NCBI GenBank assembly: GCA_036675075.1
Contig: JAKFFM010000002.1
Span: 83,120 to 147,119 of the forward strand
Length of the DNA stretch: 64,000 bases
Direction of reading: 5' to 3'
From: Bacteroidota bacterium
GTDB lineage: Bacteria > Bacteroidota > Bacteroidia > JAKFFM01
Positions 1 to 31,551 of the stretch are shown one piece after another (the stretch's first letter is position 1; the number at the start of each line of letters is the position of its first letter). The notes under the pieces are model-generated. The model was not told the origin of the DNA. It did no database searches and was given only the letters and a program-made list of their open reading frames with translations. Position numbers and translations under genes: made by a program.

Positions 1-632
1 GATTCATGCTGGTTATGATATCCTTGTACGATCTGGACATATCCGATCTTTTCATCCTCAAAGTAGTCAACTACACGGTGTAGAAAATCGGGATGAGGTA
101 CGTGATCCGGATCCATAACTACACAGAGCTCACCTGTAGCCTGCCTAAGCGCATTGTTAATATTTCCTGCTTTTGCGTCGGTTTTGTCGATACGTGTCAC
201 ATGTACCACGCCAAGCTCTTCACAAAGTTTTTTGAGCTTAGGATCATCTCCTTCATCGCACAGGTAACTCGTGTGAGGATACTTCACGGCCACCATGGCT
301 TTGAGTGTTTCTTCAAACATCTCGTAAGGTTCGCCCGGACAGGCTGTCGTAAGCATGTCGACTGTCCAGGTTTTTTTCGGTTCTGGTTTTACAGGTACAC
401 TGATATCCAGGTAGTGATACCATTCGTGGAGCATCTTCAGCAGCTTGAAAAGCAGTGCGATGGTAAATGGGTAGTACAGCCATGCCTTCCCCGGTTCCAC
501 AGTTGAAAAGAACCATCCCAGGAATATTGCCATGCAACCAAGCGCACACACGATGAGTATCCTGAGCGTGATCTTTTCTTTTCGTGTTGGTGCAGTTGCA
601 AAAGGGTACGTTGGTTTGTAATTATCCTCCAT
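1..632 (-). CDS. BcsA-like processive family-2 glycosyltransferase, N-terminal ~210 aa; gene continues beyond window start
   Basis: Minus-strand frame open from ATG at 630-632 to the window edge (no stop, so absent from the ORF track). Translation MEDNYKPTYPF...HVTRIDKTDAKAGNINNALRQATGELCVVMDPDHVPHPDF reproduces the KAGN(I/L)N ... DxDHVP block of BcsA-type synthases; one TM helix near the N-terminus. Confidence 0.6.
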   Translation of the reverse strand, partial: MEDNYKPTYPFATAPTRKEKITLRILIVCALGCMAIFLGWFFSTVEPGKAWLYYPFTIALLFKLLKMLHEWYHYLDISVPVKPEPKKTWTVDMLTTACPGEPYEMFEETLKAMVAVKYPHTSYLCDEGDDPKLKKLCEELGVVHVTRIDKTDAKAGNINNALRQATGELCVVMDPDHVPHPDFLHRVVDYFEDEKIGYVQIVQGYHNQHE

Positions 633-687
633 CTCGTTCAGGTTTCACTCTTGTTTACTTATATGTCTTACTCAGTTTACGTTCATT

Positions 688-1962
688 CTACCTTTCCACG
701 AGGAACGGAATGTTCGCCGTTGCTACATGGTTGTGATTATCATATGCATATACAAACAGTCTGTAAGCTCCAGGCTTCTCAGGTGCGTTGAACTGGATCT
801 GTGCGCTGTTTGTATTCTTTATTAATCCCGGCACCCAGTCAGGTTTCCGTTCTCCTTCACCATTCTTGAGATCAGTTGTTTCATGAAGGATCTCCCAGTA
901 ATAAGTCAGCTTTTCATTTTCAGGATCAGTAGCATAAATTTTTGCCCTGTAGGTGTATTCTGATTTGATCTTGATATCCTGATGTGCTTCGCGGCCATCC
1001 AGTACAACACGGGTGATCCGCGGTGCGAGGTTCTTGCGCTCACTTTTTCCTTTCCAGTTGACCTCCATCACATCGAGTGTTTCTGTTTCGTGACCGGATT
1101 CAAGAATGAGCGAAAAGAGTGTATTGGTTCGTTCCTGTTTATGTCCCCATAGAAATAGGTAACAGCCAACACAATTTTTCTGGTTGCGTATGGCTGCATA
1201 ACGAAGGCTGCATGCTTTCGCTTTCTGCGAGCTGTTTTCTTCCAGGAATGCACCCCAGCTGGTTGTAGTGCTTTCCCAGTATCCTGTCGGCCCGTATTCA
1301 GAGATCAGGTAAGGCTTTTTCCATCTTGCTTCAGCGATCTTATTATAGATGACAGTGACTTCCTTAAATGCATTGATCGAGAGTATATCGATGTCAGGAC
1401 ATAATTTTCTTATCAGCCTGACCTGCTTTACGGGTGCTCCGGCAAGCATGGTTGTAGTCAGGTGATTGGTGTCGATTTCATGGATCATCTTCGCGATATC
1501 CTGCAATGCTCTAAACATGTTTTTATCGTAAGACACCAGCCCCACTTCATTTCCAACGCCCCACATAAGCAATGCAGGATGGTCTTTATACTTTAATACT
1601 TCTTTTCTGATGCGCTCTTTCTGCACAGCTACTGCTGCCGGATCAGAGTAGTTCATTCCATAATGTACAGGAGTGACATAAAGCCCTAGTGTTACAGTTA
1701 GTCCAAGCCTTTGAGCTTCATCAAGAACCTGGTCTGCATTATCGGTTGTCCATAGTCGAATGGAATTTCCTCCATAGTCTTTCAGCTTGTCAAAGTGTCC
1801 GAAGCCACCAGCCCCATTGATGTAGTAAGGCTTTCCATCTCTGTATAAAGTATAGCCGTGATGATCTTTTCGGATTTCTGTTTTAATAGGTTGTGCGATG
1901 GATAAACTTGTGGATCCGGCATATAGCGCACAAGCCAGAAGCAATTGTAGCTGTCCCTTCAT
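688..1962 (-). CDS. Secreted glycoside hydrolase, clan GH-A TIM-barrel (GH5-like; family not determined)
   Basis: 424-aa ORF with signal peptide; MWGVGNEVG (acid/base NE) and LISEYGP (nucleophile E) spaced as in clan GH-A enzymes; 55 nt upstream of and co-oriented with the BcsA-like gene. Confidence 0.6.
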   Translation of the reverse strand: MKGQLQLLLACALYAGSTSLSIAQPIKTEIRKDHHGYTLYRDGKPYYINGAGGFGHFDKLKDYGGNSIRLWTTDNADQVLDEAQRLGLTVTLGLYVTPVHYGMNYSDPAAVAVQKERIRKEVLKYKDHPALLMWGVGNEVGLVSYDKNMFRALQDIAKMIHEIDTNHLTTTMLAGAPVKQVRLIRKLCPDIDILSINAFKEVTVIYNKIAEARWKKPYLISEYGPTGYWESTTTSWGAFLEENSSQKAKACSLRYAAIRNQKNCVGCYLFLWGHKQERTNTLFSLILESGHETETLDVMEVNWKGKSERKNLAPRITRVVLDGREAHQDIKIKSEYTYRAKIYATDPENEKLTYYWEILHETTDLKNGEGERKPDWVPGLIKNTNSAQIQFNAPEKPGAYRLFVYAYDNHNHVATANIPFLVER

Positions 1963-2098
1963 ATCGTTCTCGATCTTTGCTTTGGACTCAGTTACTAAAA
2001 TTGTACCTAATGTCCTGAGTTGCTGTATAGATGTGTTTGTATTCTTAAATTTGCTAGAGACGTTTGGTTTGCGTTACTAATTTTAGAAGAAAGAAATC

Positions 2099-2992
2099 GT
2101 GGAGTACCTTGACTATCTTGAATCAGAAGCGATATCAATTCTTCGGGAGACTGCCTCGCAGTTTCGCAGACCCGTATTATTATTTTCCGGAGGTAAAGAT
2201 TCAACTGTGCTCTTTCACCTGTCATTAAAGGCGTTCTCACCCGGGAAAATACCTTTCCCATTGTTGCATGTAGATACCGGGCATAACTTTCCTGAGGCAT
2301 TAGCCTTTCGTGATGCGCTTGTATCTGGTACAAGATCAACGCTTATTGTCAGGCTTGTCGAGGATACGATAAAGAATAAAAACCTTCCTGATGCTATTGG
2401 CAAGCTGCCTTCACGAAATGCATTGCAAACACACACGCTTTTAGATACAATAAAAGAGTTTTCATTCGATGTGCTGATCGGTGGAGCACGTAGAGATGAA
2501 GAGAAGGCAAGAGCCAAGGAACGTGTCTTTTCTGTAAGGGATAAATCCGGTCAATGGAATCCCGGATGTCAAAGGCCTGAGTTATGGAACATACTGAATG
2601 GTCGTATTTCCGAAGGTGAACATGTTCGTTCGTTCCCGATCAGCAACTGGACTGAACTTGATGTATGGAACTACATCAAACGTGAACAGATCGTGCTTCC
2701 TTCAATCTATTATTCACACACGAGAGAAGTGATCGTTCACAATGATCAGCTCGTTGCTGTATGTCCTTATATAACACTTGATGGAAGCGAGCAGGTTGTA
2801 ATTAAAAACGTACGTTACCGGACTGTTGGTGACATGACCTGTACCGCAGCAATTGAATCATCGGCATCAAATGCAGATGAAGTGATTGAAGAATTAAGGC
2901 GTACGAAGATCAGTGAACGTGGTGAGACACGCATCGATGACCGGGTATCGGAAACAGCTATGGAAGACCGTAAACGAATGGGTTATTTCTGA
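2099..2992 (+). CDS. cysD: Sulfate adenylyltransferase subunit 2
   Basis: 297 aa; PAPS-reductase-type P-loop LLFSGGKDSTV; collinear with CysD; GTG start; stop overlaps the cysN start. Confidence 0.85.
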   Translation: MEYLDYLESEAISILRETASQFRRPVLLFSGGKDSTVLFHLSLKAFSPGKIPFPLLHVDTGHNFPEALAFRDALVSGTRSTLIVRLVEDTIKNKNLPDAIGKLPSRNALQTHTLLDTIKEFSFDVLIGGARRDEEKARAKERVFSVRDKSGQWNPGCQRPELWNILNGRISEGEHVRSFPISNWTELDVWNYIKREQIVLPSIYYSHTREVIVHNDQLVAVCPYITLDGSEQVVIKNVRYRTVGDMTCTAAIESSASNADEVIEELRRTKISERGETRIDDRVSETAMEDRKRMGYF

Positions 2993-4200
2993 TGGATATT
3001 CTAAGGTTCCTGACAGCTGGAAGTGTTGATGATGGCAAGAGTACGCTCATCGGAAGGCTGCTGTACGATCATGGTTCAATATACCTTGATCAGCTTGGTT
3101 CATTATTGCGAGATGGCAGTAGTCAGTATGACCTTTCAAAATTGACAGATGGACTTAAGGCGGAACGCGAGCAGGGCATAACCATCGATGTTGCCTACAG
3201 ATATTTCAGTTCTTCCAAAAGGAAATACATTATAGCAGATGCTCCAGGGCATTTTGAATTTACACGAAACCTGGTTACTGCAGCTTCAAATTCCGATGCA
3301 GCAATTATTCTGATCGATGCGTTGAATGGCGTTACTGAACAGACGAAGCGACATGCCATGCTGCTTTCCATGATGGGTATTCGACATGTCGCCATAGCCA
3401 TTAATAAAATGGATCGTACAGGTTTCGATAAAAGCGTATTTGACAAGGTTGTGAAACAGTTTTCTGATCTTGACTTTCAGTTTTCATTTGAACACCAATT
3501 CATTCCAGTATCTGCCTTGCAAGGTGATAATGTCGTGGAATCCTCAGTGAACATGCCATGGTACACTGGTGAAACATTGATGTCATTCCTTGAAGACATC
3601 AGGCTTGTTGAACACAAATCACCATTCCGCTTGAGAATTCAACATGTTACGAAGGATGAGGCAGGTATAAAATTCTATTCTGGCATTGTGCTCAGCGGTA
3701 AAATATCAGAAAGAGAAAAGATCAGGATCGTACCAGGAGATATTTCTGAGATCACGAGCATTAAATCAGGAGATAAGCGTATGGATGTTGCTGAAAAGCA
3801 TCGCAGCGTTACCTTACAGTTATCTACTGATGTGGAGCTTAAACGCGGTGACCTTATGGTTTGTGAAGAAGATAAGATTGACCCTTCACATTCTGTAACG
3901 ATGATGTTAACCTGGTTTAGCGAATCAGACGTCCTGATGCCAGGTAAGCGCTATATTCTTCAGAGCAATTCATTTGTCACTCATGTTCTTGTTAAAGATG
4001 TTGAACATAGAATCAGTGTGATGGACTTGAAGGTAGACACGAGCAGCAAGGAATTGCATTTTAATGACATTGGAAGAGTCATGTTTAAAACGGCTGTGCC
4101 AGTTTATCTTGATCCATTTCAGAAGGTGGCTGGAAATGGTCGCGCGATTCTCATTGATGAGCATTCCAACCTGACAGTTGCAGCCTGCATCGTTCTATAG
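2992..4200 (+). CDS. cysN: Sulfate adenylyltransferase subunit 1 (GTPase), no fused APS kinase domain
   Basis: 402 aa; G1 motif GSVDDGKSTLIGRLL, DAPGHFEF, NKMD; translationally coupled to cysD. Confidence 0.8.
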   Translation: MDILRFLTAGSVDDGKSTLIGRLLYDHGSIYLDQLGSLLRDGSSQYDLSKLTDGLKAEREQGITIDVAYRYFSSSKRKYIIADAPGHFEFTRNLVTAASNSDAAIILIDALNGVTEQTKRHAMLLSMMGIRHVAIAINKMDRTGFDKSVFDKVVKQFSDLDFQFSFEHQFIPVSALQGDNVVESSVNMPWYTGETLMSFLEDIRLVEHKSPFRLRIQHVTKDEAGIKFYSGIVLSGKISEREKIRIVPGDISEITSIKSGDKRMDVAEKHRSVTLQLSTDVELKRGDLMVCEEDKIDPSHSVTMMLTWFSESDVLMPGKRYILQSNSFVTHVLVKDVEHRISVMDLKVDTSSKELHFNDIGRVMFKTAVPVYLDPFQKVAGNGRAILIDEHSNLTVAACIVL

Positions 4201-4974
4201 TTTTTCCAGAATAACGAGCATAGGCACCGGAAGAGATAATGAAAGCTTTTGCGCCAGTCCTGTTTCAAAGCTTCCACCAGAGTTCTTACTACCTGCAACG
4301 ATACAAAGAAGCTTTGGGTCACGTTCCTCAATTTCTTCGTTTAATGCCTGATGGTAATCTTTTACTTCCAGCTCGATCAGATCAACAAAGGGATGTGGGC
4401 TGGGTTTTACTTCCTTATGCTTACCGGCCTTTTTCAGCCACAGTTGCGTGACTTTTGATTTTCCCACAAGCTTATGGTCAGTAAGGAACTTTAAAGCACC
4501 TTCTGTTTGTCCTTCGCCACTTACCGGGAAGAGAACTTCATCCGGCAGGCCAAGACATGCCGTTTCAGGTACCGCGACAAAATTGCAGAATCCCAGTTCG
4601 ATAAAGTCTGCTGTCCTGCTGCCGAACAGCCATTTGCGGATCTTGTCTTCTTTTGAAATTCCACCAAATGCAAGGACGATCTCTTTACGAAGTATCATCT
4701 TTTTCAGATCGACTTCCGAATAATCATCATAAACTTCATAATGGAATTTTAAATTCTGTTTAGGGTTTGCAAAATTGCTGATCCTCTCAAGCTCGACCCT
4801 GGCTTCCTTCATTCGCTTTTCCTTGACAAACGGATCAATATCATCTTCAAGTGAATCATCGATCGTAAGCTGATGGAAAAGCGTAAGCTCATGGCCTGTA
4901 TGCTGGGCAATGCATGCGGCATATCCAAGGGCATGAATGGAGGCAGAACTGAAATCAACTAATACAAGGTACAC
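4195..4974 (-). CDS. Universal stress protein family, tandem Usp domains
   Basis: 259 aa with two alpha/beta Usp-like halves (VLVDFSSAS... and ...IVAGSKNSGGSFETGLAQKLSLSLPVPMLVI); GTG start; 3' end overlaps cysN by 6 nt (convergent). Confidence 0.45.
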   Translation of the reverse strand: MYLVLVDFSSASIHALGYAACIAQHTGHELTLFHQLTIDDSLEDDIDPFVKEKRMKEARVELERISNFANPKQNLKFHYEVYDDYSEVDLKKMILRKEIVLAFGGISKEDKIRKWLFGSRTADFIELGFCNFVAVPETACLGLPDEVLFPVSGEGQTEGALKFLTDHKLVGKSKVTQLWLKKAGKHKEVKPSPHPFVDLIELEVKDYHQALNEEIEERDPKLLCIVAGSKNSGGSFETGLAQKLSLSLPVPMLVILEKL

Positions 4975-13237: not shown

Positions 13238-13259
13238 CTTTTCTTGTAACTTTAGCTGA

Positions 13260-19296: not shown

Positions 19297-19574
19297 GTTA
19301 CTGTACTGTTTTTAGTTGAAACGCTAAATTAAGGAATTCCGGCTGATGCTGGTATTTTTCCCTTTCTCTTTAATCTTTTTCCGGGAAATTTATTGTTTTT
19401 AAAGGGCCCGAAAATCGCAAATTGCTGTAAATCAACATTGTGCCATCTTGCATTGTATGCCAATAAAGTGGTATGGTAAGCCACAACCCGCTCTGGGCAA
19501 TATCGACGCCATATACCGGTTTTAGAATAGTTGTTTAACAGGTGCGGAAAGCCGCGTCATTAATAAGAAAGAGC

Positions 19575-22500
19575 ATGTTGATTAAAAAAGAGAGAATTAC
19601 CGTGTTGATGCTTTTCCTTGTATCACTGATGCAAGTCTTTTCAGCAAAGGCACAACCTATTTCAAACCATTATTTCGGGCAGAATGCCTGGATGCCGGAT
19701 TCTATCGGAAACGTTAAGAAATACGGGCAGCTGGATTCTAAATGGCCTGAAATCAAAGCTTCGGGGGCTCAGATCATTCGATTCGGTGGTATCAGTGCCG
19801 ATAAGAATATGCCCACGAATTACCAGTATGTTAAAATGATCGATAAGATCAGAGCACAGGGCATGGAGCCGGTGATGCAGGTACCTTTCAATAAAGGACA
19901 ATATTCAGCAGCACAGGCGGCAGCGATCGTGAAATATGTGAACGTAACGATGGGCCGTAATGTCAAATACTGGGTTATCGCGAACGAACCGGATCTTGCA
20001 TACCAATATACAAGTGCCGGCCAGGTATCGTGGTATCTGAAGTCATTTGCCACTGCCATGAAAGCGCAGGATCCAACCATTAAGACGATTGGTCCTGAGA
20101 CTGCATGGTACAATAGCAATATCATTCACGGGCTTACCACACCAGGTGGTCCTGATGATGTTACAGGTAAAGATGCCAATGGAAGGTATTATATCGATTA
20201 TATCTCCTTCCATATGTACTCATTCAGTGGTACCCAGACTCGTTCACAGGTGCTTACTGACCTTACCGCACAATATCGTTTCGACTGGAACCTTGGTGAA
20301 CTGAATAACAGGATCGCCGCGTGTAACACTGCACATGGACGTTCAGGAACGAACGCTGTGAAGGTAGCCGTAACGGAAGCCAATGTGGGATTCCTTAACC
20401 CTTCATCGGATAACCTTTATGGAACCGGTGCAAACAGTTTCGTTGGTGGACAGTTCTGGGCTGAGCTTCTTGCCATTGGTATGAAGCGAGGTGTCGATTT
20501 CATTAACTTCTGGTCAGTTGTTGAAGGTAATAACACCCAATACAATATCGGGTACGTTGATTATGTCACTGGTGCAAAGAAGCCTGTCTATTATCACTTT
20601 CAGATGATGGCGCAGAACTTCAACGGTACTTATATCAACGGTACAGATAACCAGGCGAATGTTAAAGCATTCGGTGCAAGGAACAATGCCGGACAAACCG
20701 TTGTCATGATCCTTAACCAGGATCAGTCGGTGAACTACAATTATTCAGTGAGGCTTGATGGAAGTGCTGCATCAGGAACCAATCCGCTTAAGATCAATGT
20801 GAACTCGGGTATTGCAAAAGAATACACCGGAGCCATCAACAATCAGGCAACACAGGTGCTGGTGTTTGACGGCGCAGGTAACATTGTGAAGAAGATCGAC
20901 TATAAGCTTGCGGGGAACGCTGATGCGAACCTTGCACCAACAGTTACTAACTATACAGCAACTTCAAATACACTTGCTGCTACAATCACGCCTGCAGGTG
21001 CAACTGCGATCTGTTCAGGGTCAAGTGTGATCCTCAAGGCCAACACAGGTACAGGTTACACTTACCAGTGGAAAAAAGATGGTGTGAACATCACAGGTGC
21101 AACATCTGCGAACTATACTGCAACAACTGCAGGAAGCTACCAGGTTAAGATCGTTGCAGGAACACAGACTGCATGGTCAGCACCATTGACGGTGACAACA
21201 GGTGTTGCTCCGGCAGCGACCATTACAGCAGGAGGTTCATTGACTTTCGCTTCAGGTGGAGGTGTGAATCTTCAGGCGAACACAGGAACAGGTTTTACCT
21301 ATGTGTGGATGAAAAACAATGTAGCCATCCCGGGAGCGACAGCTTCCTTGTACCGTGCAACAACTGCAGGTTCATATACTGTTGTTGTTAAGAACAGCAC
21401 AGGATGTTCCAAGACCTCTGCAGCTGTTACTGTGAATGTTTCAGGTGCCTTTGCAGCGACGATTACTCCTGCAGGTGCAACTGCGATCTGTTCGGGTTCG
21501 AGTGTCGTGCTTAAAGCAAACACAGGGACAGGATATATTTATCAATGGAAGAAGAATGGTGTGAACATTACCGGTGCAACTGCAGCAAACTATACTGCTA
21601 CAACTGCAGGAAGCTACCAGGTGAAGATCATCTCCGGATCACAAACTGCATGGTCAGCGCCGTTGTCAATTACAACTGGTGTTACACCAACAGCAACGAT
21701 CACAGCAGGTGGATCATTGACCTTTGCAGCAGGCGGAGGTGTGAACCTTCAGGCTAACACAGGTACAGGCTTAACATATGTCTGGATGAAAAACAATGTA
21801 GCTATACCAGGTGCAACATCGTCATTGTATCGTGCGACTGCAGCAGGTGTTTATACAGTTGTTGTTAAGAATTCAACAGGATGTACGAAAACATCAGCAG
21901 GAGTTACAGTGAATGTTTCCGGTGGATTTGCCGCTACGATTACACCTTCCGGATCAACTACGATCTGCCAGGGTTCAAGTGTATTGCTGCGTGCAAACAC
22001 AGGTTCAGGCTTTATCTATCAGTGGAAAAAGAATGGTGTGAACATCACGGGTGCAACTGCTGCTACATATTCTGCTACTACTGCTGGAAGCTACCAGGTT
22101 AAGATCATATCAGGTACACAGACTGCATGGTCAGCACCATTGTCTGTGACGATTGGCGCGATGCCGGTGGTTTCGATCAAGGCAAATGGAAGCACAACAC
22201 TTTCAGCTGGTGGTTATGTGACTCTATCTGCAACAGCAGGAACAGGGTTCGGATACCAGTGGAAAAAGAATGGTGTGAATATATCCGGAGCAAATTCAAT
22301 TAACTATAATGCAAATGCTTCTGGTACATATACCTGCTACATTACACGTAATGGTGCATGTGGAGTGAATACTAACGGTATTGCTGTTTCAGTAGGAACT
22401 ACGTTCGTTGCGTCGATTACAGCTTCAGGTCCAACTTCAGTTGCCTTAGGTGGTAACGTTTGGTTAAAGGCGAATACAGGAACAGGCATCACATACCAGT

Positions 22501-23462
22501 GGAAGAAGAATGGATATGCGATCGCAGGTGCAACTGGTTCAAGCTATAATGCTACGCAGACAGGTTCTTATACAGTGACTGAAAGCTATGGTCTTACCAC
22601 AACGACATCCAATGCGATCAGCGTGAATGTTGGTTCAACACTTACTGCGATGATCTCTGCCGGTGGTCCGACAACATTCGGATCAGGAGGCAAGGTTGTT
22701 CTTTATGCGAACACTGGTGCAACATATGTATACCAGTGGAAGAAGAACGGTGTAGCGATCACAGGAGCAACTGCACCTACATATACAGCAACTACTTCAG
22801 GTAGCTACCAGGTAAAGATCACAAGTGGATCATTGAATGCATGGTCAGCACCGCTCACGGTGACTGTTTCAGGATCACTTGCAAAAGTGGCGGATTCAAC
22901 AACTGTAACAGATGGTGGTGAGATGGCTGCAATGAGCGAAGGCAACATGCAGGCTACAGGTGGTGAATCTGTGGAAGGAACAACCTACCAGTTCGCTAAT
23001 CCAAGTGATACCAATGTGATTTCAAATGAAAACAGCCTTGGTTCATCAGGAAGAAAAGGAACTGATGTAGGAAGGGAAGGCGCACAGGTTCTTAACAAGA
23101 CCGGAGCGGGTGGAAGGAAATCATCTTCTGCTTCGAGGACTGCTGAAACGCAGATGGATACCACGGAGCTGAACAAGATGATCAACAATGAAACAGGTAC
23201 TCTTTCATTGAAGGCATTCCCTAATCCGACTGAAGGAGATCTTACCATCACGGTCACAACTGTAAACACAGTGCAGACACAGGTGAAGATGGAGCTATAT
23301 AATACGTTAGGACAGATTGTATGGACGAAATCACCAGTGATTGAGAACGGATTCATGAATGATGTGATCCAACTCGATGGATCGGTCGCTTCAGGAGATT
23401 ACTTCCTGCGCGTTCGTGAAGACGCCGGAACACAAGTCATGAAAGTTTGTGTGATCAGATAA
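19575..23462 (+). CDS. T9SS-secreted glycoside hydrolase (clan GH-A-like catalytic domain) with about eight Ig-like repeats and type-A CTD
   Basis: Track ORF begins at GTG 19542; ATG 19575 gives a cleaner signal peptide. Catalytic region with WVIANEPD and KVAVTEANVG (putative acid/base and nucleophile); repeats ATITPAGATAICSGSSV...YQWKKNGVNITGAT; C-terminal Por-secretion tail (FPNPTEGDLTI...GDYFLRV...VIR). Confidence 0.65.
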   Translation: MLIKKERITVLMLFLVSLMQVFSAKAQPISNHYFGQNAWMPDSIGNVKKYGQLDSKWPEIKASGAQIIRFGGISADKNMPTNYQYVKMIDKIRAQGMEPVMQVPFNKGQYSAAQAAAIVKYVNVTMGRNVKYWVIANEPDLAYQYTSAGQVSWYLKSFATAMKAQDPTIKTIGPETAWYNSNIIHGLTTPGGPDDVTGKDANGRYYIDYISFHMYSFSGTQTRSQVLTDLTAQYRFDWNLGELNNRIAACNTAHGRSGTNAVKVAVTEANVGFLNPSSDNLYGTGANSFVGGQFWAELLAIGMKRGVDFINFWSVVEGNNTQYNIGYVDYVTGAKKPVYYHFQMMAQNFNGTYINGTDNQANVKAFGARNNAGQTVVMILNQDQSVNYNYSVRLDGSAASGTNPLKINVNSGIAKEYTGAINNQATQVLVFDGAGNIVKKIDYKLAGNADANLAPTVTNYTATSNTLAATITPAGATAICSGSSVILKANTGTGYTYQWKKDGVNITGATSANYTATTAGSYQVKIVAGTQTAWSAPLTVTTGVAPAATITAGGSLTFASGGGVNLQANTGTGFTYVWMKNNVAIPGATASLYRATTAGSYTVVVKNSTGCSKTSAAVTVNVSGAFAATITPAGATAICSGSSVVLKANTGTGYIYQWKKNGVNITGATAANYTATTAGSYQVKIISGSQTAWSAPLSITTGVTPTATITAGGSLTFAAGGGVNLQANTGTGLTYVWMKNNVAIPGATSSLYRATAAGVYTVVVKNSTGCTKTSAGVTVNVSGGFAATITPSGSTTICQGSSVLLRANTGSGFIYQWKKNGVNITGATAATYSATTAGSYQVKIISGTQTAWSAPLSVTIGAMPVVSIKANGSTTLSAGGYVTLSATAGTGFGYQWKKNGVNISGANSINYNANASGTYTCYITRNGACGVNTNGIAVSVGTTFVASITASGPTSVALGGNVWLKANTGTGITYQWKKNGYAIAGATGSSYNATQTGSYTVTESYGLTTTTSNAISVNVGSTLTAMISAGGPTTFGSGGKVVLYANTGATYVYQWKKNGVAITGATAPTYTATTSGSYQVKITSGSLNAWSAPLTVTVSGSLAKVADSTTVTDGGEMAAMSEGNMQATGGESVEGTTYQFANPSDTNVISNENSLGSSGRKGTDVGREGAQVLNKTGAGGRKSSSASRTAETQMDTTELNKMINNETGTLSLKAFPNPTEGDLTITVTTVNTVQTQVKMELYNTLGQIVWTKSPVIENGFMNDVIQLDGSVASGDYFLRVREDAGTQVMKVCVIR
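20979..22880 (+). repeat. Intragenic tandem DNA repeats encoding Ig-like domains (alternating A/B units, ~477-bp A+B period, then diverged copies)
   Basis: A-type units begin at ~20979, ~21455 and ~21933 and share long identical stretches (e.g. cctgcaggtgcaactgcgatctgttc; actgcaggaagctaccaggt); B-type units ATITAGGSLTFA.GGGVNLQANTGTG alternate with them. Confidence 0.7.
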
Positions 23463-23484
23463 TTATTAACCCATAAATCACAAG

Positions 23485-25134
23485 ATGAAAAAGCTTTTTG
23501 TAATGTCATTGCTGACTTTGTCAGCAATGACAAAAGCGCAGCCAATTGCGTCAACATTCTTTGGGCAGAATGCCTGGATGCCGGATACGATCGGTTCCAC
23601 CTTGTACTATGGACAGCTGCATAATAAGTGGCCGCAGATTGCAGAGAGTGGAGCAAAGCTGATACGATTCGGAGGAATAGGACCTGATAAGCATATGCCA
23701 ACCAAACATCAGTATCTGAAGATGGTTGACAAGATCCGTTCAAATGGAATGGAGCCAATGCTGCAGGTGCCTTTCTATAATGGAATGTATAATGCACAGC
23801 AGGCTGCTGAAATTGTTAAGTATATCAATGTTACCATGGGAAGGAATGTGAAGTACTGGATCGTGGCCAATGAACCTGATAATGAGTATGGCTATAATAC
23901 AGCAGCACAGTGTGCAGCATACATCAGATCATATTCTTCAGCAATGAAAGACATTGATGGCTCGATCAAGATTATTGGACCTGAAACAGCATGGTATAAC
24001 ACAAACATCATTAATGGGTTGATCACTCCGGGCGGACCAAGTGATGTTACGGGAAAGGACAGCAAAGGCAGGTATATCCTGGATATATTGTCATTCCACA
24101 TGTATGCATTCAATGGAACACAGACCCGTGCACAGGTGATTTCAAACCTCACTGAACCATGGAAGTTCCAGGCGAACCTTACAGACCTTAACACACGGAT
24201 CGCGAGCTGTAACCAATATCACGGTCGAACAGGTGACAATGCAGTCAAAACAGCAGTCACTGAAGCCAATGTCGGATACATCAACAGTGCATCTGATAAC
24301 CTGTACGGTAGTGGAGCAAACAGCTTTCTTGGTGGACAGTTCTGGGTTGAAATGATGGGTGTTGCCTTACAGAAGGGTGTTGCCTTCTTCACTCCATGGA
24401 GTGTGGTCGAGGGAAACAACACGCAGTTCAACATCGGGTATATTGATTATACGAACGGAAAGAAAAAGCCAACATACTATCATTATAAAATGATGGCCGA
24501 GAACTTCAACGGGACCATGGTCTCTGCTTCTGATAACCAGGCTAACGTAAAAGTGTTTGCGAGTAAGAGTGGATCATCAGTAGCTCTTATGATCCTTAAC
24601 CAGGAATCATCAGGCACACATTCGTACAGCGTAAAGCTTGATAATGGTGTGAGCAACGGTTCAGAATCTTTGAAGATCAAAGTGGCAGGCGGTATAACCT
24701 CTACATACTCTGGTGATTTGCCAGCACAGTCAACACAGTTGCTTGTGTTCGACCTGAATGGAACATTAATGAAAAAGATCGATTACAAATTGTATGGTCA
24801 TGCTGACGCGAATCTTCCGCCGGCAGTAACAGAATCATCCATACCAACAGCGATCACGGAAGAGATGGTTAAAAAGAACCTGAGTGTTTTCCCGAATCCT
24901 TCGAAGGGTGATTTTACAATAGAGATCCAGGCCATAGACGGATTTGAAGATGATATACCTATGAAGCTGATCAATGAGATCGGACAGGTTGTTCTTGAGA
25001 AGAAGTTGTCACCGCGTAATGGAAAAATCCGTGAGCTGATCACTCCGCATGGAGATCTTGCATCAGGGATGTATTTCATTTCCCTTGACCTGGAAGGAAA
25101 GAGCATCATTAAGAAGCTGGTGATAAGAAACTGA
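23485..25134 (+). CDS. T9SS-secreted glycoside hydrolase, paralog of the upstream catalytic domain, with type-A CTD
   Basis: 549 aa; roughly 70 percent identical by eye to the N-terminal 440 aa of the upstream protein (FGQNAWMPD...IRFGGI...MGRNVKYW.VANEPD...VTEANVG); C-terminal FPNPSKGDFTIEI...GMYFISL...VIRN sorting domain. Confidence 0.65.
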   Translation: MKKLFVMSLLTLSAMTKAQPIASTFFGQNAWMPDTIGSTLYYGQLHNKWPQIAESGAKLIRFGGIGPDKHMPTKHQYLKMVDKIRSNGMEPMLQVPFYNGMYNAQQAAEIVKYINVTMGRNVKYWIVANEPDNEYGYNTAAQCAAYIRSYSSAMKDIDGSIKIIGPETAWYNTNIINGLITPGGPSDVTGKDSKGRYILDILSFHMYAFNGTQTRAQVISNLTEPWKFQANLTDLNTRIASCNQYHGRTGDNAVKTAVTEANVGYINSASDNLYGSGANSFLGGQFWVEMMGVALQKGVAFFTPWSVVEGNNTQFNIGYIDYTNGKKKPTYYHYKMMAENFNGTMVSASDNQANVKVFASKSGSSVALMILNQESSGTHSYSVKLDNGVSNGSESLKIKVAGGITSTYSGDLPAQSTQLLVFDLNGTLMKKIDYKLYGHADANLPPAVTESSIPTAITEEMVKKNLSVFPNPSKGDFTIEIQAIDGFEDDIPMKLINEIGQVVLEKKLSPRNGKIRELITPHGDLASGMYFISLDLEGKSIIKKLVIRN

Positions 25135-25230
25135 GAAGACACCTATACACTTTGAGAAATATTATTTAAGATCAGGAATAGCTAACTTGTTAAACAACAC
25201 CTTGTAACTAGCTGATTTTATTTAAGAAAG

Positions 25231-25255
25231 GCCCGCAACAGCGGGCTTTTTTTTT
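25231..25255 (+). terminator. Rho-independent terminator after the GH gene pair
   Basis: gcccgc-aaca-gcgggc hairpin (25231-25246) followed by nine T (25247-25255). Confidence 0.6.
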
Positions 25256-25298
25256 AGGCATAGATTTTTTAATGATCACCTGGAATAAATCGGTTGAT

Positions 25299-26924
25299 AT
25301 GAAAAAGTCTATACTAAGTTTAGTAACGTTGCTCACGTTTTTAGCTGGTGCAACATACGCCCAAAGTTATCAGTGGGCAAAAAGAATTGGTAGTTACGGT
25401 GTTGATTTCGGTCGCGCAATAGCTTCAGATCCTCAGGGAAATATCTATGTGACAGGTCAGTTCGAGTTCGATGCATACCTGGCAGGAAATAACACCATTA
25501 CATTCACTGCCATGGGAGGTCACGACATCTTCCTTGCGAAATACAGTCCTTCAGGTAATTTGCTCTGGGCACGCAAGGCAGGAGGAACAGGTGGGGATGC
25601 GGGAACCGCAATCTATGTAGATGCTGCCGGTAATTCCTACATCACTGGTGAGATGGAAGGTGCAAGCTACTTCGAATCAACAGTGCTTAACTGCCAGGGA
25701 AGCAATGATATTTTCATCGCTAAATACAACACGAACGGAGATCTTGTATTTGCTGCACAGGCCGGAGGATACTCTGGTGACAGAGGAAGAGCGATCGTTG
25801 CCGATGCTGATGGCAATGTTTATGTGACAGGTGAATTCAGGCAATCAGCCGGATTTGGAAGTCATTCCGTAACTACTGCAGGAGTTTATAAGGATTTCTT
25901 CCTGGCTAAATACAATCCTTCTGGTGGCTGGGAATGGGTGCGTCCGGGTGGCAGCAGCGTTGATGACCAGGGACAGGCTATCTGCCTCGATCCTACAGGC
26001 AATGTATATGTAGCAGGATATCATGGGCCCAATTCAACATTCGGAAATGCGGCTTTATCATCTGCAGGTGGATTTGATATGTTCATAGCGAAGTTTACAC
26101 CCAATGGTAACATGGACTGGATCCAGCGTGCAGGTGGAGAATGGGATGACTACATCGCAGGGCTTGCCTTTAATTCGGATGACAACGTAATTTATGTTAC
26201 CGGTGAATTCAGAGGCACATCAGACTTCGGTCCGATCACAAAGATTGAAACGGGATGGGGAGATGTATTTGTCGGAGCTTATTCAACAGCAGGAACTCCA
26301 TTATGGATCTCGACAGCTGGAGGCTCTGGTGCAACAGATTGTTCAAAAGCGATCGCCCTTGATGACAACAACAACATTTACATCACAGGGAATTACGGGA
26401 AATCTGCAACATTTCCTGCTCCAATGTCAGGTGACACATCCGAAGTTTTCATAGCAAGCTTTAATCCATCTGGAAGTCTGCGCTGGATCACTGATGCAAA
26501 AGGTTCCGGTAAAGAAGACATTGGCAGAGGCATCACGCTTGATCCGGGTGGTAATGTTTACGTCGTTGGAAATTATAATGAATACCAGGGCACACCGACA
26601 GAAAATCTGAATGTTGGTTCTGCAGTGCTGACAGGCTTTTCAAATGAAGATGCATTCATCCTGAAATATTCACCTGTATTGCCAAGCGGTATAAAAGAGC
26701 TGACTTCCGGCATTATGGAATTTTATCCGAACCCTGCAAGTGATCAGGTCTTCATAAGCCCTGGTGTGAGTGGTGAAATGATCATTCAGAATGAACTGGG
26801 ACAAGTGCTGACAAGAAAAAATGTAGTTGCGGGAGTGGCTGAAACAATTGATTTGAAAGGATTTGGATCAGGTATGTTTTTCTTAAGGTTGGAAAACGAG
26901 TCGAGAAAGCTGATAGTTTATTAG
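25299..26924 (+). CDS. SBBP-repeat beta-propeller protein with T9SS type-A CTD
   Basis: Start moved from 25272 to ATG 25299 (MKKSILSLVTLLTFLAGA signal peptide). Repeats of the form G.D.G.AI..D..GN.YVTGEF ... DIF.AKY...G.L.W typical of SBBP propellers; C-terminal EFYPNPASDQVFI...GMFFLRL sorting domain. Confidence 0.6.
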   Translation: MKKSILSLVTLLTFLAGATYAQSYQWAKRIGSYGVDFGRAIASDPQGNIYVTGQFEFDAYLAGNNTITFTAMGGHDIFLAKYSPSGNLLWARKAGGTGGDAGTAIYVDAAGNSYITGEMEGASYFESTVLNCQGSNDIFIAKYNTNGDLVFAAQAGGYSGDRGRAIVADADGNVYVTGEFRQSAGFGSHSVTTAGVYKDFFLAKYNPSGGWEWVRPGGSSVDDQGQAICLDPTGNVYVAGYHGPNSTFGNAALSSAGGFDMFIAKFTPNGNMDWIQRAGGEWDDYIAGLAFNSDDNVIYVTGEFRGTSDFGPITKIETGWGDVFVGAYSTAGTPLWISTAGGSGATDCSKAIALDDNNNIYITGNYGKSATFPAPMSGDTSEVFIASFNPSGSLRWITDAKGSGKEDIGRGITLDPGGNVYVVGNYNEYQGTPTENLNVGSAVLTGFSNEDAFILKYSPVLPSGIKELTSGIMEFYPNPASDQVFISPGVSGEMIIQNELGQVLTRKNVVAGVAETIDLKGFGSGMFFLRLENESRKLIVY

Positions 26925-26947
26925 ATACTTTTTTAAGGGAGGTATAG

Positions 26948-27868
26948 GTGAAGGTTGCAAGGTTAATAGTGATTCTGATCATGCTGTGTTCTGCTTCGCA
27001 GGCACAGCTTGTCATTAATGAAATTCCGCGTGGAATGTATTATGAACGGACTGCAAGGGTGCGGAAGTTCAAAGACATGAAGAACATGCGTGATGTGTTT
27101 CATTATGATGGACTGCTGATGGGCCGTAACAGGATCATGGGAAGTTTCTCAAACAACTTTGGAAGGATCTGGGTTCCTGAAGCAGGCGGATATAAAGCCC
27201 GTTTCAGATCACAGATGGGTTACTTCCTGCGCTTTCGCTTTTTTGAAGAATACAGTATCAACCTTACCTTATACCAGGACCTGAATAAAAAGGCTGCGCT
27301 GCCATGGAGTCCACATGTGAATTATTCCATCGGACGATACCAGTGGCGACCAAACAAATTCAACTACGGTTACGAAAATTATCAACCCAACCGGTTCGAT
27401 CATAACGCGACAGACTGGAAGACGAAGTTCCTGCAGGGATACTACTTTATATCTTACTCGCACCTGCTACCCGACAGCTTAAGGAAATACACCCAGATCG
27501 ACAGTACATCGATGCTGAAGTTCACATACTTCGTAAGATATTCGATCTTTTATGCGGGCAATCAAAATGAAAATCTGGGAGGCACCTGGATGAACTCCAA
27601 GCCTGTATTTGGATTCAATGTGCGATACATCATTGGAAGAAACTACTATGTTGAGTTCAACCCGCTTGTGCATCTGAATAAACGAACACAGATGCCATGG
27701 GATGGTGACTTTACCTACGGGGTTGGTTATTTCGATTATCGGTCATTCCGTGTCTCTGCTTCCTATGCGAATTACGGTCCCAACAGGTGGCCATGGAACA
27801 GGCAGGATGTATTGCCACATGGATTCTTTGAAGGCAATTTCCGTCTTGCATTTAACTGGGTATGGTAG
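26948..27868 (+). CDS. Hypothetical exported protein, aromatic-rich, possible outer-membrane beta-barrel
   Basis: 306 aa; signal peptide MKVARLIVILIMLCSASQAQ; rich in Y/W/F/N/R; C-terminal FNWVW (terminal aromatic as in many OM barrels); GTG start; stop overlaps next start. Confidence 0.4.
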   Translation: MKVARLIVILIMLCSASQAQLVINEIPRGMYYERTARVRKFKDMKNMRDVFHYDGLLMGRNRIMGSFSNNFGRIWVPEAGGYKARFRSQMGYFLRFRFFEEYSINLTLYQDLNKKAALPWSPHVNYSIGRYQWRPNKFNYGYENYQPNRFDHNATDWKTKFLQGYYFISYSHLLPDSLRKYTQIDSTSMLKFTYFVRYSIFYAGNQNENLGGTWMNSKPVFGFNVRYIIGRNYYVEFNPLVHLNKRTQMPWDGDFTYGVGYFDYRSFRVSASYANYGPNRWPWNRQDVLPHGFFEGNFRLAFNWVW

Positions 27869-29476
27869 ATGAAGGTGTTATTGATTATCCTACTTGCATT
27901 TTTTATAAGTGCCCCTACAGGGTGCTATTCACAGCTTAAATTTCTCATTGAAGATTTCGAAGGATGTTCACGTTCTCCTGAATCAATGAACAGGATCGGA
28001 GCTTTCACATTCGGGTCACTCAAACTAAAAATCAGTCAGTCGCAATCTTCTGGTAAAGGATACTCTGGCCGAACAGCGATTGAGCAGCTGCATGATGGAA
28101 CACACATTTACGGAGGATGGGGCCTTGGTGTTTTCAGGTTGATTCAGCTGAACCAGGAGAAGGATCGGTTTAACTTCTTCTTTCTTTCCAGAGAAGCAAC
28201 TGATGCATCCATGATCATTTATCTACAGGATGATGATAACTGGGATGGTGTCTTCACTGAACATTCCGACGATGTATGGAAGTATCATGCTACCATTAAA
28301 CCTGGTAAAGGCTGGCAGTATTTTTCTATTCCGCTGAGTGCTCTTTTTGATGATAATAAAGGGGGTGATGGTGCTTTCAATATCAACTATAAAGAAGGCA
28401 AGCTGCTGTCGGTCATGTTCAGAAATACAGGAAGATCAACTCCCAATGTGTTGTATGATTTTTTCTGTTTCAGCGAAGGACACCTGAGTGATCCTGCGAC
28501 TTTTTCAGAGGCCAGACTCAATGTTCAGAATGCGGGATGTGCAATTGGTGCCTGGTCTGAAGAAGGGCAGAGAAGCGGACTAGGTGATATTGTAAGAGGC
28601 TTTACAAAGGGCGCTACAGGGACAGGGAGTGTTTCTCTTGTACATTCATTTCATCCGTTTTCTGATGATGGAAGCACAAGGGCAAACAAGTTTCCTGACG
28701 CAAGGGAGTTACAACGTGTTGTGGATGGCGGACTTGTTCCAATGATCACTATAGAGAATCAGTTTCTAGGCCTTAAAGATAAAAAGCAGCCATCACTGAA
28801 GGATGTTGCTGAAGGTCGTTATGACCATTATTTTTCTGAATGTGGAAAGCGGTTCAGCCAGGTGAAAGGCAAAGTCATGGTGAGGCTGATGCATGAGTTC
28901 AATGGCAACTGGTACCCATGGTGTATTGCCAACAACAACAATTCACCTGAACTGTATAAAGCGGCATGGAGGCGGATCGTAACGAAGTTCAGGGAAGCTG
29001 GAGCACACAACGTGTTGTTTGTCTGGTGTCCTAACTCTGGCTCTCTTCCGCAGAAGCCATGGAACTACATCATAGATGCCTACCCGGGTGATGATGTCGT
29101 TGATATTGTTGGAACCGATGTTTACAATGGAGCAGAAAAAGGTAACATGATCTGGAGAAGTTTCAGGAAGGAAGCATCGGAAACATACTGGCTCCTGACA
29201 TCGCATTTTCCTGACAAGCCGTTCATGATCTGTGAAATGGCCTCACGTGAAAGACATAAGAGTGATGGCAAAGATGCACCTGGAAAAGAAGACTGGATCT
29301 ATGAAGCAAGTGAAGCACTGAAAACGGATTTCTCAAAGTGTTTCGTTTTTACATGGTTTAACAGTGGAAAGTATAAGATCAACACGAGTGATAATTCACG
29401 TAATGCATTTATAAATTATATGTGGTCAGATCCTTACTTCAAGGATAAGTCACTCAAGCTTGATAATCTCAGGTAA
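27869..29476 (+). CDS. Putative carbohydrate-binding domain fused to a GH26-like glycoside hydrolase
   Basis: 535 aa; signal peptide ending ...PTGC; N-terminal ~200-aa beta-sandwich-like domain (KGYSGRTAIE...YGGWGLGV...LQDDDNWDG); C-terminal VRLMHEFNGNWYPWCIA resembles the GH26 acid/base motif, FMICEMASRE a possible nucleophile region. Confidence 0.5.
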   Translation: MKVLLIILLAFFISAPTGCYSQLKFLIEDFEGCSRSPESMNRIGAFTFGSLKLKISQSQSSGKGYSGRTAIEQLHDGTHIYGGWGLGVFRLIQLNQEKDRFNFFFLSREATDASMIIYLQDDDNWDGVFTEHSDDVWKYHATIKPGKGWQYFSIPLSALFDDNKGGDGAFNINYKEGKLLSVMFRNTGRSTPNVLYDFFCFSEGHLSDPATFSEARLNVQNAGCAIGAWSEEGQRSGLGDIVRGFTKGATGTGSVSLVHSFHPFSDDGSTRANKFPDARELQRVVDGGLVPMITIENQFLGLKDKKQPSLKDVAEGRYDHYFSECGKRFSQVKGKVMVRLMHEFNGNWYPWCIANNNNSPELYKAAWRRIVTKFREAGAHNVLFVWCPNSGSLPQKPWNYIIDAYPGDDVVDIVGTDVYNGAEKGNMIWRSFRKEASETYWLLTSHFPDKPFMICEMASRERHKSDGKDAPGKEDWIYEASEALKTDFSKCFVFTWFNSGKYKINTSDNSRNAFINYMWSDPYFKDKSLKLDNLR

Positions 29477-29527
29477 GGAAAAATAAGTGGCATTGTTTTG
29501 TTTAAGTAATCACAAACATTTTCATTC

Positions 29528-30319
29528 ATGAAAGAGAATTTAAAACCATTGATGATCCTGTTTGGTTTCGTCGGATCAGTGGTGCTGGTGTTTTTTATTG
29601 AAACCACGTACCTGCTGGATGAAAAGCATGAGGCAGAAACCTCAGTGCCTGTCAAGGCAATAAAAGAATCAATGAATAACTCTATCGGGGATCCCGGAGA
29701 GATCAAGGAAGTTTTTGAAGACTTTGAAAAGCTGGAAGAAGGAGCAAACCCTGAACTGCGGCATATCTTCACTTATGGTTCGATCAAAGTAGCAGCTACA
29801 AAGGAAAATACAAGAGGAAAAGGATACTCAGGAAGTCGTGCCATTAAGGTTACCTGGACAGCCGAGCACAATTTCGGAGGATGGGGAAAAGGGATCGGGC
29901 ATTTTTACAGGATCGACAAGGAGAACGATTACCTCAACTTTTTTGTTCTCTATCCATCAGGCAATGACGATCTCCTGAAAATTGTATTACAGGATGATGA
30001 TAACGGTAACGGATCGTATGAAGAGGACAAGGATGATGCCTGGTTCTCAGAGATACCGCTCAAGGCATCTCCGGAATGGCAACTGTTCTCCATACCTGTG
30101 AAAGAGCTGAAGGACCAGACATCCGGAGGAGATGGCACCTTAAATATTGCTGAGGGTGAAGGAAACCTGATCACCTTTTTATTTGAATTTCCAAGAAGTG
30201 GTGAATACACCAAAGAGAAGGTGTGGTACTTCGATCATGTGAATCTTACAAAAGGAAAAATTCCTGTAGGGAAAGATATTACAGACATACCAGTTTCCAT
30301 GTCAAATCTTTATAAATAG
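29528..30319 (+). CDS. Stand-alone paralog of the N-terminal (putative carbohydrate-binding) domain of the upstream hydrolase
   Basis: 263 aa; N-terminal TM/signal anchor; shares EDFE...KGYSG.RAI...FGGWGKG...NFF.L...LQDDDNGNG...QLFSIP...GGDG..NI with 27869..29476 but has no catalytic domain. Confidence 0.45.
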   Translation: MKENLKPLMILFGFVGSVVLVFFIETTYLLDEKHEAETSVPVKAIKESMNNSIGDPGEIKEVFEDFEKLEEGANPELRHIFTYGSIKVAATKENTRGKGYSGSRAIKVTWTAEHNFGGWGKGIGHFYRIDKENDYLNFFVLYPSGNDDLLKIVLQDDDNGNGSYEEDKDDAWFSEIPLKASPEWQLFSIPVKELKDQTSGGDGTLNIAEGEGNLITFLFEFPRSGEYTKEKVWYFDHVNLTKGKIPVGKDITDIPVSMSNLYK

Positions 30320-30324
30320 TTACG

Positions 30325-31551
30325 ATGAAAGAATTGAACAACGACAGGGTTCATTTTATGAACCTTGATTTCCTGAGGTTCCTTGCGGCCTACATGATTG
30401 TGATTCTTCACTCCTTTACTGCGTGGCAGGCAAATTACGGGAATCCGACATGGATGGAAGCGAAGGATGGCAATCTTTCCTTTTTCGGATTATTATTGAA
30501 CCGTGGAGTAAATAATCTTGGATTTGGTGTGGATATATTTTTCCTGATCAGCGGATTCCTGATTACTTACCTGTTGCTCGCAGAACGTGAAAGAACAGGT
30601 GGTGTTGACGTTTTCAAGTTTTATGTTCGAAGAGCTTTCAGGATCTGGCCATTGTATTTCCTGCTGTTGCTGGGTGCTCCGTTAATGGCGTTTTTCTTCA
30701 ATGAGAAGATGCCTGAGTTTGCTTACCATTTTGCCTTCCTGGGAAACTTTGAAACGATCAAAAACCATACGATCAATCCAATCACTACGCATTTGTGGTC
30801 TATCTGTGTGGAAGAACATTTCTACCTGATCTGCCCTGTGATCCTGGCGTTCATTCCGACAAAGAAATTGCCTCAGGCATTCCTCATCATCATTTTTGCA
30901 TCGATCCTTTTCAGGTACAACATCTATGATCATCCAAACTCAAGCAGTCATCTCTATCTGAATACCTTGAGCAGAATTGATACGCTTGCGTTAGGTTGTC
31001 TTTTCGGATACCTTGTTTATTTCAAGAAACTTCAGTTCAACGATCCTTTGCCTGTGAGGCTGATTGTTTATTCGATCTTCCTGCTCATGTTATTCACGGA
31101 GAATTTCAAGAGCGTTCATTCTCCATTTGATGCTGCATTGAAAAAGTACCTGTTCCTGATGCCGGCAGCTTACTGGCTTGGGAATTTTATTTTCAATGCG
31201 GGCGCAGTGATGGTTCCAAGGAAGGAAAACTTCTTCCATTTGCTGGGTAAAGCTTCTTATGGATTATATATGTTTAATCCTGTACTTATTTCTGTTATGC
31301 TGAAGTATTTCCATAAGTATGACTTCCAGAATTTCATTGTGTACACCGTACTCGTGAACGGAATCCTGCTCGGAATCACCCTGCTGAGTTATCACTATTT
31401 TGAAATGCCATTCCTCAAGCTGAAAGAGAAGTTTTCTGTTATTCCAAGCGGAAGTACAAAGCATGCTGCCCAGAACCCGGAACCTTCAAAAGCTCCGGTA
31501 CTGGCTGCAGTTGAAGAAAGCAAAGTGCCTCCAACACAGGGACAGGTATAG
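30325..31551 (+). CDS. Acyltransferase family 3 membrane protein (polysaccharide O-acyltransferase-like)
   Basis: 408 aa; about ten TM helices; N-terminal LDFLRFLAAYMIVILHSF and RIWPLYFLLLL resemble acyltransferase-3 (OatA/WecH-like) proteins. Confidence 0.7.
   Translation: MKELNNDRVHFMNLDFLRFLAAYMIVILHSFTAWQANYGNPTWMEAKDGNLSFFGLLLNRGVNNLGFGVDIFFLISGFLITYLLLAERERTGGVDVFKFYVRRAFRIWPLYFLLLLGAPLMAFFFNEKMPEFAYHFAFLGNFETIKNHTINPITTHLWSICVEEHFYLICPVILAFIPTKKLPQAFLIIIFASILFRYNIYDHPNSSSHLYLNTLSRIDTLALGCLFGYLVYFKKLQFNDPLPVRLIVYSIFLLMLFTENFKSVHSPFDAALKKYLFLMPAAYWLGNFIFNAGAVMVPRKENFFHLLGKASYGLYMFNPVLISVMLKYFHKYDFQNFIVYTVLVNGILLGITLLSYHYFEMPFLKLKEKFSVIPSGSTKHAAQNPEPSKAPVLAAVEESKVPPTQGQV

Follow-up and report, generated by a model that had tools for sequence, protein, structure and literature searches.

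What does a synthase that resembles the bacterial cellulose synthase BcsA make, when its gene is paired with that of a secreted glycoside hydrolase (GH)? The question arises at one edge of a 64,000-nucleotide (nt) stretch of DNA from a Bacteroidota bacterium (contig JAKFFM010000002.1 of assembly GCA_036675075.1, forward-strand positions 83,120 to 147,119; hereafter the window), where the gene of a BcsA-like family 2 glycosyltransferase (GT2) runs off the end of the sequence. We propose, with a probability of roughly 60%, that two genes at this locus form a synthase-dependent module for making a β-1,3-containing β-glucan and for processing it in the periplasm. A β-1,3-glucan or a mixed-linkage β-1,3/1,4-glucan is the most likely product, and not cellulose, because studied relatives of both glucanase types predicted here cut only β-1,3 or β-1,3/1,4 glucans.

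The truncated gene had been noticed in an original prediction made from the letters of the window, which described a minus-strand frame open to position 1, recognized by the KAGNINNAL…DPDHVP catalytic block of a BcsA-like synthase and missing from the list of open reading frames (ORFs) because no stop codon lies within the window. Our translation and profile matches bear out this description. The first ATG of the ORF is at 632, with an in-frame stop ahead of it (minus strand translated from 698), and the frame stays open down to base 1, leaving 210 amino acids (aa) inside the window and 1112 further codons beyond its edge. The fragment includes DAKAGNINNALRQATGELCVVMDPDHVPHPDF and likewise contains the stretch TRIDKTDAKAGNINNALRQATGELCVVMDPDHVPHPDF (translation of the window), and the motif residues D126 and D174-x-D176 fall within it. 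It is matched by Pfam Glycos_transf_2 (3.4e-13) and by NCBIfam CelA (4e-24, far under the curated cut-off).

We recovered the missing part through an exact look-up of the neighboring hydrolase protein, the sequence of which is carried by three public contigs. One of these, L001, shares 100% identity with the window in 1..1962 and 99.7% across 11,962 nt, and it bears the full synthase gene (L001:11331-15299), to which the 210 in-window residues are 100% identical. On all three contigs the gene extends to 1322 aa and encodes a BcsA-like GT2 and channel core, an extra membrane helix, a GH26 domain, and a GH158-like domain. In searches against solved structures, residues 77-391 match BcsA (2.6e-35), residues 625-847 match CtLic26A, the GH26 lichenase of C. 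thermocellum listed as "Endoglucanase H" (1.2e-29), and residues 946-1193 match GH158 (2.3e-27). Pfam supports the GT2 domains and a C-terminal TIM-barrel domain, to which both Glyco_hydro_2_C and GH72, a β-1,3-glucanosyltransferase family, are matched, the latter above threshold. The Pfam GH26 model is silent on the 1322-aa protein, yet on record for many homologues. No match to GH17 was found in the synthase, the GH domains of which are GH26 and GH158-like and lie C-terminal to the GT2. A literature search found no paper describing a GT2–GH26–GH158 synthase architecture.

An AlphaFold2 model of a homologue (P0023, a 1196-aa fragment 54% identical to the synthase, modeled from a 40-sequence alignment) has a mean pLDDT of 87 and a pTM of 0.76. 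Foldseek aligned this model to BcsA (9b8v, 4p00, 4hg6) with a probability of 1.0 over 429-455 columns and a root-mean-square deviation of 3.6-4.1 Å, taking in the GT domain and the channel helices TM5-8 (TM, transmembrane), and it also matched CtLic26 (TMt 0.85) and GH158 (TMt 0.67). As in BcsA (R. sphaeroides 4HG6/4P00; E. coli 9B8V), the GT-A domain carries D, DxD, (T)ED, and Qxx(R/K)W motifs, and the interface (IF) helices and TM5-8 channel superpose; coupled polymerization and translocation is presumed. Unlike BcsA, the synthase of the window has no C-terminal PilZ domain or BcsB partner and only two N-terminal TM helices, it places K for R in QxxRW, and it continues through an extra TM helix into ~770 predicted periplasmic residues that hold the two GH domains.

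Conservation of the catalytic motifs was counted over 33 homologues that are 46-71% identical. In all 33, D126, D174xD176, E264-D265, and Q301-Q-x-K304-W305 are unchanged, such that QxxRW reads QQxKW (K304 for R) throughout the family. The Glu pair of the GH158-like domain, E1027 and E1126, is kept in 31/33 homologues and the GH26 nucleophile E799 in 30/33, while the GH26 acid/base E695 ("AHE") is kept in 22/33, the window protein included. By sequence, by fold, and by both catalytic glutamates, which in the window protein lie in RFAHEPDN (E695) and LAEFGS (E799), the GH26 domain (625-847) belongs with the CtLic26A-like subgroup and shares its AHE and AEFG motifs. Unlike CtLic26A, it is tethered to a membrane synthase and has lost the acid/base motif in about one-third of the family, and its specificity is a prediction.

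The second gene of the module encodes the hydrolase. A secreted GH-A-like enzyme had been placed 55 nt upstream of the synthase on the same strand, and the gene that we find there can be assigned specifically to GH158. The N-terminus of the protein is a hydrophobic signal sequence, Pfam Glyco_hydro_2_C (clan GH-A) matches it at 3.1e-10, and phmmer searches of the PDB align its residues 23-423 with residues 21-424 of GH158(Pro) (9oro, 4.8e-76) and also return BuGH158 (6pal, 2.5e-60). The end-to-end alignment with these two enzymes covers an (α/β)8 barrel and a C-terminal immunoglobulin (Ig)-like domain, the Glu pair (GVGNEVG, acid/base; LISEYGP, nucleophile), and the residues of the -2/-1/+1 subsites.

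A 2026 structural study provides the reference for specificity. GH158(Pro) cuts laminarin, curdlan, and mixed-linkage glucan, cello-oligosaccharides are neither cut nor bound, and a β-1,3 link spanning subsites -2 and -1 is a strict requirement; its catalytic residues are Glu143 and Glu229, and Trp77, Trp236, Phe278, Glu285, and Tyr291 bind the substrate (PMC13195107). We compared eight reference positions of this enzyme (W77, N142, E143, E229, W236, F278, E285, and Y291), which read W, N, E, E, W, F, E, and F in the stand-alone GH158 and Y, N, E, E, W, Y, E, and F in the fused GH158-like domain. These positions are conserved or substituted aromatic-for-aromatic in both copies of this locus and in most partners in other genomes, and the residues that enforce the -2/-1 β-1,3 link are retained in the stand-alone and the fused copies. 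The fused copy is only ~25% identical to the stand-alone ones. Every stand-alone partner that we examined begins with a signal peptide, a lipobox, or a membrane anchor, and the enzyme of the window is predicted to be a β-1,3- or β-1,3/1,4-glucanase that acts outside the cytoplasm. Unlike GH158(Pro) and BuGH158, it stands in a biosynthetic context, beside or fused to a synthase, and not in a polysaccharide-utilization locus (PUL).

The GH158 and synthase genes are probably co-transcribed, because no terminator-like hairpin was found on the minus strand between them and because the same co-directional order, its genes separated by short gaps, is found most often among relatives. An Rfam scan of 500..2300 gave no match at E <= 1, and hence no known riboswitch. 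One or more promoters presumably lie in the divergent intergenic region ahead of the GH158 gene, where sigma-70-like matches occur; such a consensus is not meaningful for Bacteroidota.

A profile-guided scan in which one genome represented each GTDB species identified relatives of the synthase in at least 513 species. Our neighborhood analyses cover the 80 best synthase loci, which come from Cytophagales, Sphingobacteriales, Chitinophagales, Flavobacteriales, Bacteroidales (Prolixibacteraceae), and Balneolaceae, along with a few metagenome-assembled genomes of Verrucomicrobiota and Planctomycetota. A stand-alone GH158 gene lies beside the synthase in 63/80 of these loci by unbiased neighbor clustering and in 77/80 by tblastn, and it is the sole widely conserved neighbor. 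It is found co-directional and upstream (the commonest placement and that of the window), divergent and upstream, downstream on the same strand, or downstream on the opposite strand. That the linkage survives such rearrangement is strong evidence for functional coupling. The original prediction had likened this pairing of synthase and hydrolase to cellulose operons; the coupling is real and recurs in four arrangements, but the likeness is one of logic and not of product, because the hydrolase belongs to GH158, a β-1,3-glucanase family.

Several loci depart from the arrangement seen in the window. In Chitinophaga japonensis DSM 13484 (4767-15011 of the locus), two GH158–synthase pairs stand in tandem (GH158 4767-6083, synthase 6120-9806, GH158 9908-11200, and a second synthase-like ORF of ~1280 aa), an order that shows duplication of the entire two-gene module. 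Nafulsella turpanensis and Nibrella saemangeumensis encode short synthases of 898 and 912 aa, respectively, with GT2 and GH26 only; these lack the C-terminal GH158-like domain and retain a divergent, upstream stand-alone GH158. A tandem GH26-like protein is encoded near the synthase in 12/80 loci.

How could polymerization and hydrolysis be arranged across the membrane? The hydrophobic segments of the synthase and the helices of the model follow the BcsA order IF2, TM5, TM6, IF3, TM7, and TM8, and are then followed by a helix at 534-552 (TM9), with only ~40 residues between TM8 and TM9. The loop before TM9 (492-533) has 8 K/R, against 3 K/R and 8 D/E in the 60 residues that follow the helix. 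We infer a periplasmic location for the C-terminal ~770 residues, and with them for the GH26 and GH158-like domains, because the positive-inside rule at TM9 points that way and the helix order also fits BcsA plus one helix. In the mechanism that we propose, the cytoplasmic GT2 probably takes UDP-glucose and forms β-linkages, as judged by homology, and would thread the growing glucan through the BcsA-like transmembrane channel. The extra ninth TM helix would put the C-terminal region in the periplasm, where the GH26 and GH158-like domains, both of retaining clan GH-A, would be tethered at the channel exit. Lichenases cleave the β-1,4 bond after a 3-substituted glucose. The tethered domains could serve release, trimming, length setting, quality control, or transglycosylation of the nascent chain, and the separately encoded, signal-bearing GH158 of the same operon would work on the same polymer, which might end as an exported polymer or as a periplasmic oligosaccharide.

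Several considerations weigh against this proposal. No outer-membrane exporter is conserved at the 80 loci, so the proposal does not account for what becomes of the product, and it is by sequence rules that the GH domains are assigned to the periplasm. Across the whole family, Lys stands in place of the Arg of canonical QxxRW, and about one-third of the family is without "AHE", so that the GH26 domain is not universally catalytic. The GT2 core has about the same identity, 28-33%, to BcsA as to rhizobial GT2 synthases (tblastn against plasmids), and the linkage is therefore unreadable from the synthase itself. The specificity of the GH domains is drawn from relatives that are 25-45% identical, and the functions of all family members are predicted from sequence and models.

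A special case of the proposed module, which we regard as possible if unlikely, is a machine that makes and then cuts its glucan, yielding periplasmic gluco-oligosaccharides analogous to osmoregulated periplasmic glucans (OPGs). Acting on the nascent chain by cleavage or transglycosylation, the tethered GH domains would yield β-glucans that are short, branched, or cyclic and that stay in the envelope. NdvB (GH17 plus GT2), Cgs, and OpgH/OpgG are proteobacterial systems of this make-and-cut kind. The missing exporter would suit such a fate, as would the retaining, transglycosylation-capable clan GH-A folds of both GH domains and the match to GH72, a transglycosylase family. Transglycosylation and cyclization are, in contrast, purely predicted here, and among the stand-alone GH158 partners there are many lipoproteins in which acidic residues follow the Cys, and these could be exposed at the cell surface.

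The nearest precedents for a covalent fusion are the cyclic β-1,3-glucan synthases NdvB and Glt1. These join a GT2 to a retaining clan GH-A domain active on β-1,3-glucan, and the GH domain processes the product of its own synthase (Hreggvidsson et al. 2011, as cited in PMC11005184). The synthase of the window differs in carrying GH26 and GH158 domains at its C-terminus in Bacteroidota, where NdvB and Glt1 carry an N-terminal GH17 domain in Proteobacteria, and in combining two fused GH domains with a third GH supplied in trans.

A further gene bears on the make-and-cut possibility. In ~10/80 loci, a membrane protein of ~800 aa with a Sulfatase-superfamily domain of the LtaS/OpgB/BcsG type is encoded directly downstream of the synthase (Sulfatase 3.3e-39, with weak LtaS and phosphoglycerol-transferase matches); it could decorate the glucan with phospho-substituents. 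The gene occurs in loci L007, L009, L010, L012, L017, L018, L023, L035, and L073, often with an overlap between its start and the stop of the synthase gene; the protein has a signal sequence, an N-terminal extracytoplasmic domain, and several TM helices. It favors an OPG-like fate but is missing at the window locus and at most others, and it is non-discriminating, because BcsG, which modifies cellulose, belongs to the same superfamily. The absence of a conserved outer-membrane exporter and the occasional LtaS/OpgB-like neighbor keep an OPG-like reading open. On this basis we suggest, tentatively, that Bacteroidota and a few neighboring phyla may have their own, independently evolved envelope or periplasmic β-glucan system. 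Equally tentative is the conjunction of its parts, in which one polypeptide would polymerize a β-1,3(/1,4)-glucan and cut or transglycosylate it to defined oligosaccharides, with LtaS/OpgB-like decoration in some species. Such a system would be a functional analogue of OPG, NdvB, and Cgs built from different enzyme families.

Could the product be cellulose after all, with the hydrolases as editors akin to BcsZ or KORRIGAN? BcsA is the top-scoring solved structure for the GT2 part and the cellulose synthases are its top NCBIfam family, JGI labels many homologues "cellulose synthase (UDP-forming)", and cellulose systems pair a synthase with an endoglucanase. The full synthase, however, scores 169.1 bits against TIGR03030 (CelA; cut-off, 699.1) and 134.3 bits against NF008558 (cut-off, 992), below both family thresholds. 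The original prediction had called the gene a BcsA-type synthase and had proposed extending the contig to check for a PilZ domain and BcsB-like neighbors. A BcsA-like GT2 of processive type was indeed recovered, as part of a GT2–GH26–GH158 fusion that is not a BcsA-type cellulose synthase: Pfam finds no PilZ at E <= 0.01 in the full-length protein, no BcsB or BcsC is encoded among the genes downstream on the public contigs, and unbiased clustering finds no conserved BcsB, BcsC, BcsZ, or GH8 in the 80 neighborhoods. With scores below cut-off, no PilZ, no BcsB, and an altered QxxRW, the synthase is not a member of the cellulose-synthase equivalog. Its conserved partners are instead GH158 and a CtLic26A-like GH26, and GH158(Pro) leaves cello-oligosaccharides uncut and unbound (PMC13195107). 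Taken together, these results make a cellulose product improbable.

The BcsA-like GT2s of S. meliloti (BgsA), Agrobacterium (CrdS), and Romboutsia ilealis make β-1,3-containing glucans (PMC10374906), and the BcsA scaffold is therefore not confined to cellulose. None of the three is reported to carry a fused GH; the synthase of the window is ~28-30% identical to rhizobial plasmid-borne GT2s.

More doubtful still, and in our estimate very improbable, is a catabolic locus in which the GT2 is non-processive or lipid-directed and external β-glucan is taken up or degraded with the help of the GH domains. Characterized GH158s do come from laminarin utilization loci or degradative metagenomes (PMC7157763; PMC13195107). 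Against this stand the BcsA fold match over 430-455 columns of the GT domain and TM5-8 channel, the invariant TED and Qxx(K)W motifs, and the absence of SusC/SusD or other PUL genes among the conserved neighbors of the 80 loci; catabolism would also be hard to reconcile with a covalent link to a membrane synthase that recurs in more than 500 species.

Scarcely any weight is left for the weakest idea, raised in the original prediction, that the locus makes a sulfated polysaccharide with activated sulfate from cysDN: these genes are divergent from the hydrolase and synthase genes, starting 136 nt from the GH158 start, as coordinates and NCBIfam matches confirm, but tblastn with the CysD and CysN of the window found the pair beside the synthase in 0/80 related loci, neither a sulfotransferase (for which a check had been proposed) nor an adenosine 5'-phosphosulfate kinase is among the conserved neighbors of those loci, and the CysN (402 aa, aligned only to positions 23-430 of a 632-position bifunctional model) lacks a fused CysC kinase. 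We reject the link on the unmatched loci; by this comparison cysDN is an unrelated neighbor of the glucan module, and its predicted functions on their own fit assimilatory sulfate reduction.

We know of no synthase-dependent glucan pathway characterized in Bacteroidota. Database labels for the synthase family read only "glycosyltransferase" or "cellulose synthase", and the latter is probably wrong. The family is large and probably mis-annotated, with a clear testable prediction: the fused GH26 and GH158 domains provide a rare forecast of the product, a β-1,3-containing glucan. It occurs in many cultured species, among them members of Pedobacter, Chitinophaga, Algoriphagus, Pontibacter, and Salinimicrobium, and the module offers a natural system for studying cooperation between a synthase and its glycanases at the channel exit. 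GH158 genes beside such synthases should not be counted as markers of laminarin degradation in metagenome surveys.

Table 1. Features of the window, with positions, strand, and the evidence for each
Feature	Positions	Strand	Evidence
Synthase, 5' part, codons 1-210 of 1322 (N-terminal cytoplasmic tail, TM helices 25-43 and 52-70, first half of the GT2 (GT-A) domain)	1..632	-	Translation, Pfam, NCBIfam, identity to full gene
Spacer from GH158 stop codon to synthase start codon, 55 nt	633..687	-	ORF coordinates
Stand-alone GH158, 424 aa	688..1962	-	ORF, Pfam, phmmer against PDB
Divergent intergenic region between GH158 and cysD start codons, 136 nt	1963..2098	.	Coordinates
cysD	2099..2992	+	NCBIfam CysD 7.6e-124
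cysN	2992..4200	+	NCBIfam CysN 5e-127
Universal-stress-protein-like ORF, 259 aa	4195..4974	-	Pfam Usp 4.6e-5
Thr/Ser/Gly-rich repeat protein, 1048 aa	5295..8441	-	
Thr/Ser/Gly-rich repeat protein, 752 aa	8567..10825	-	
Co-directional gene run upstream of second synthase	19542..31551	+	
Lipoprotein GH26 of CtLic26A type (in the run)	27869..29476		5e-22
Acyl_transf_3 protein (in the run)	30325..31551		
Second BcsA-like GT2, 639 aa	32457..34376	-	E. coli BcsA match 1.2e-38
CotH-kinase-family protein with P-domain	34644..36443	-	

The window holds a second BcsA-like synthase (Table 1), as the original prediction had stated in describing two such enzymes of different context. The two are not recent duplicates, because they are only 21% identical; they diverged anciently and stand in different contexts. 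The second has no PilZ and reads QRSRY in place of QxxRW (W to Y), and it adjoins the CotH-kinase-family gene. The gene run upstream of it encodes proteins with type IX secretion system tails, namely one of 1306 aa that has Ig domains and is weakly matched by GH39, a Glyco_hydro_cc-like protein of 549 aa, and an SBBP β-propeller of 550 aa, in addition to the GH26 lipoprotein, the Acyl_transf_3 protein, and two ORFs without Pfam matches. This run may be a second glucan-related locus with a lichenase-like GH26. We considered its GH26 as a counterpart of the tandem GH26-like accessory protein linked to the synthase elsewhere; identity is only 25-27%, and we claim no link.

Directly after the first synthase, the public contigs carry a 74-aa ORF on the opposite strand and then two polymerase genes, the first IMS (DinB-family) and the second PHP/DNA_pol3_alpha (DnaE-type) (L001 15707-17720; L002 6065-10157), a pair that looks like an error-prone polymerase cassette without relation to the glucan module. 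On the other side, the universal-stress-protein-like ORF converges on cysN with a 6-nt 3' overlap. The two large Thr/Ser/Gly-rich proteins beyond it bear SprB/PKD repeats and CHU_C (gliding-motility-associated C-terminal) domains, which point to a gliding Bacteroidota host.

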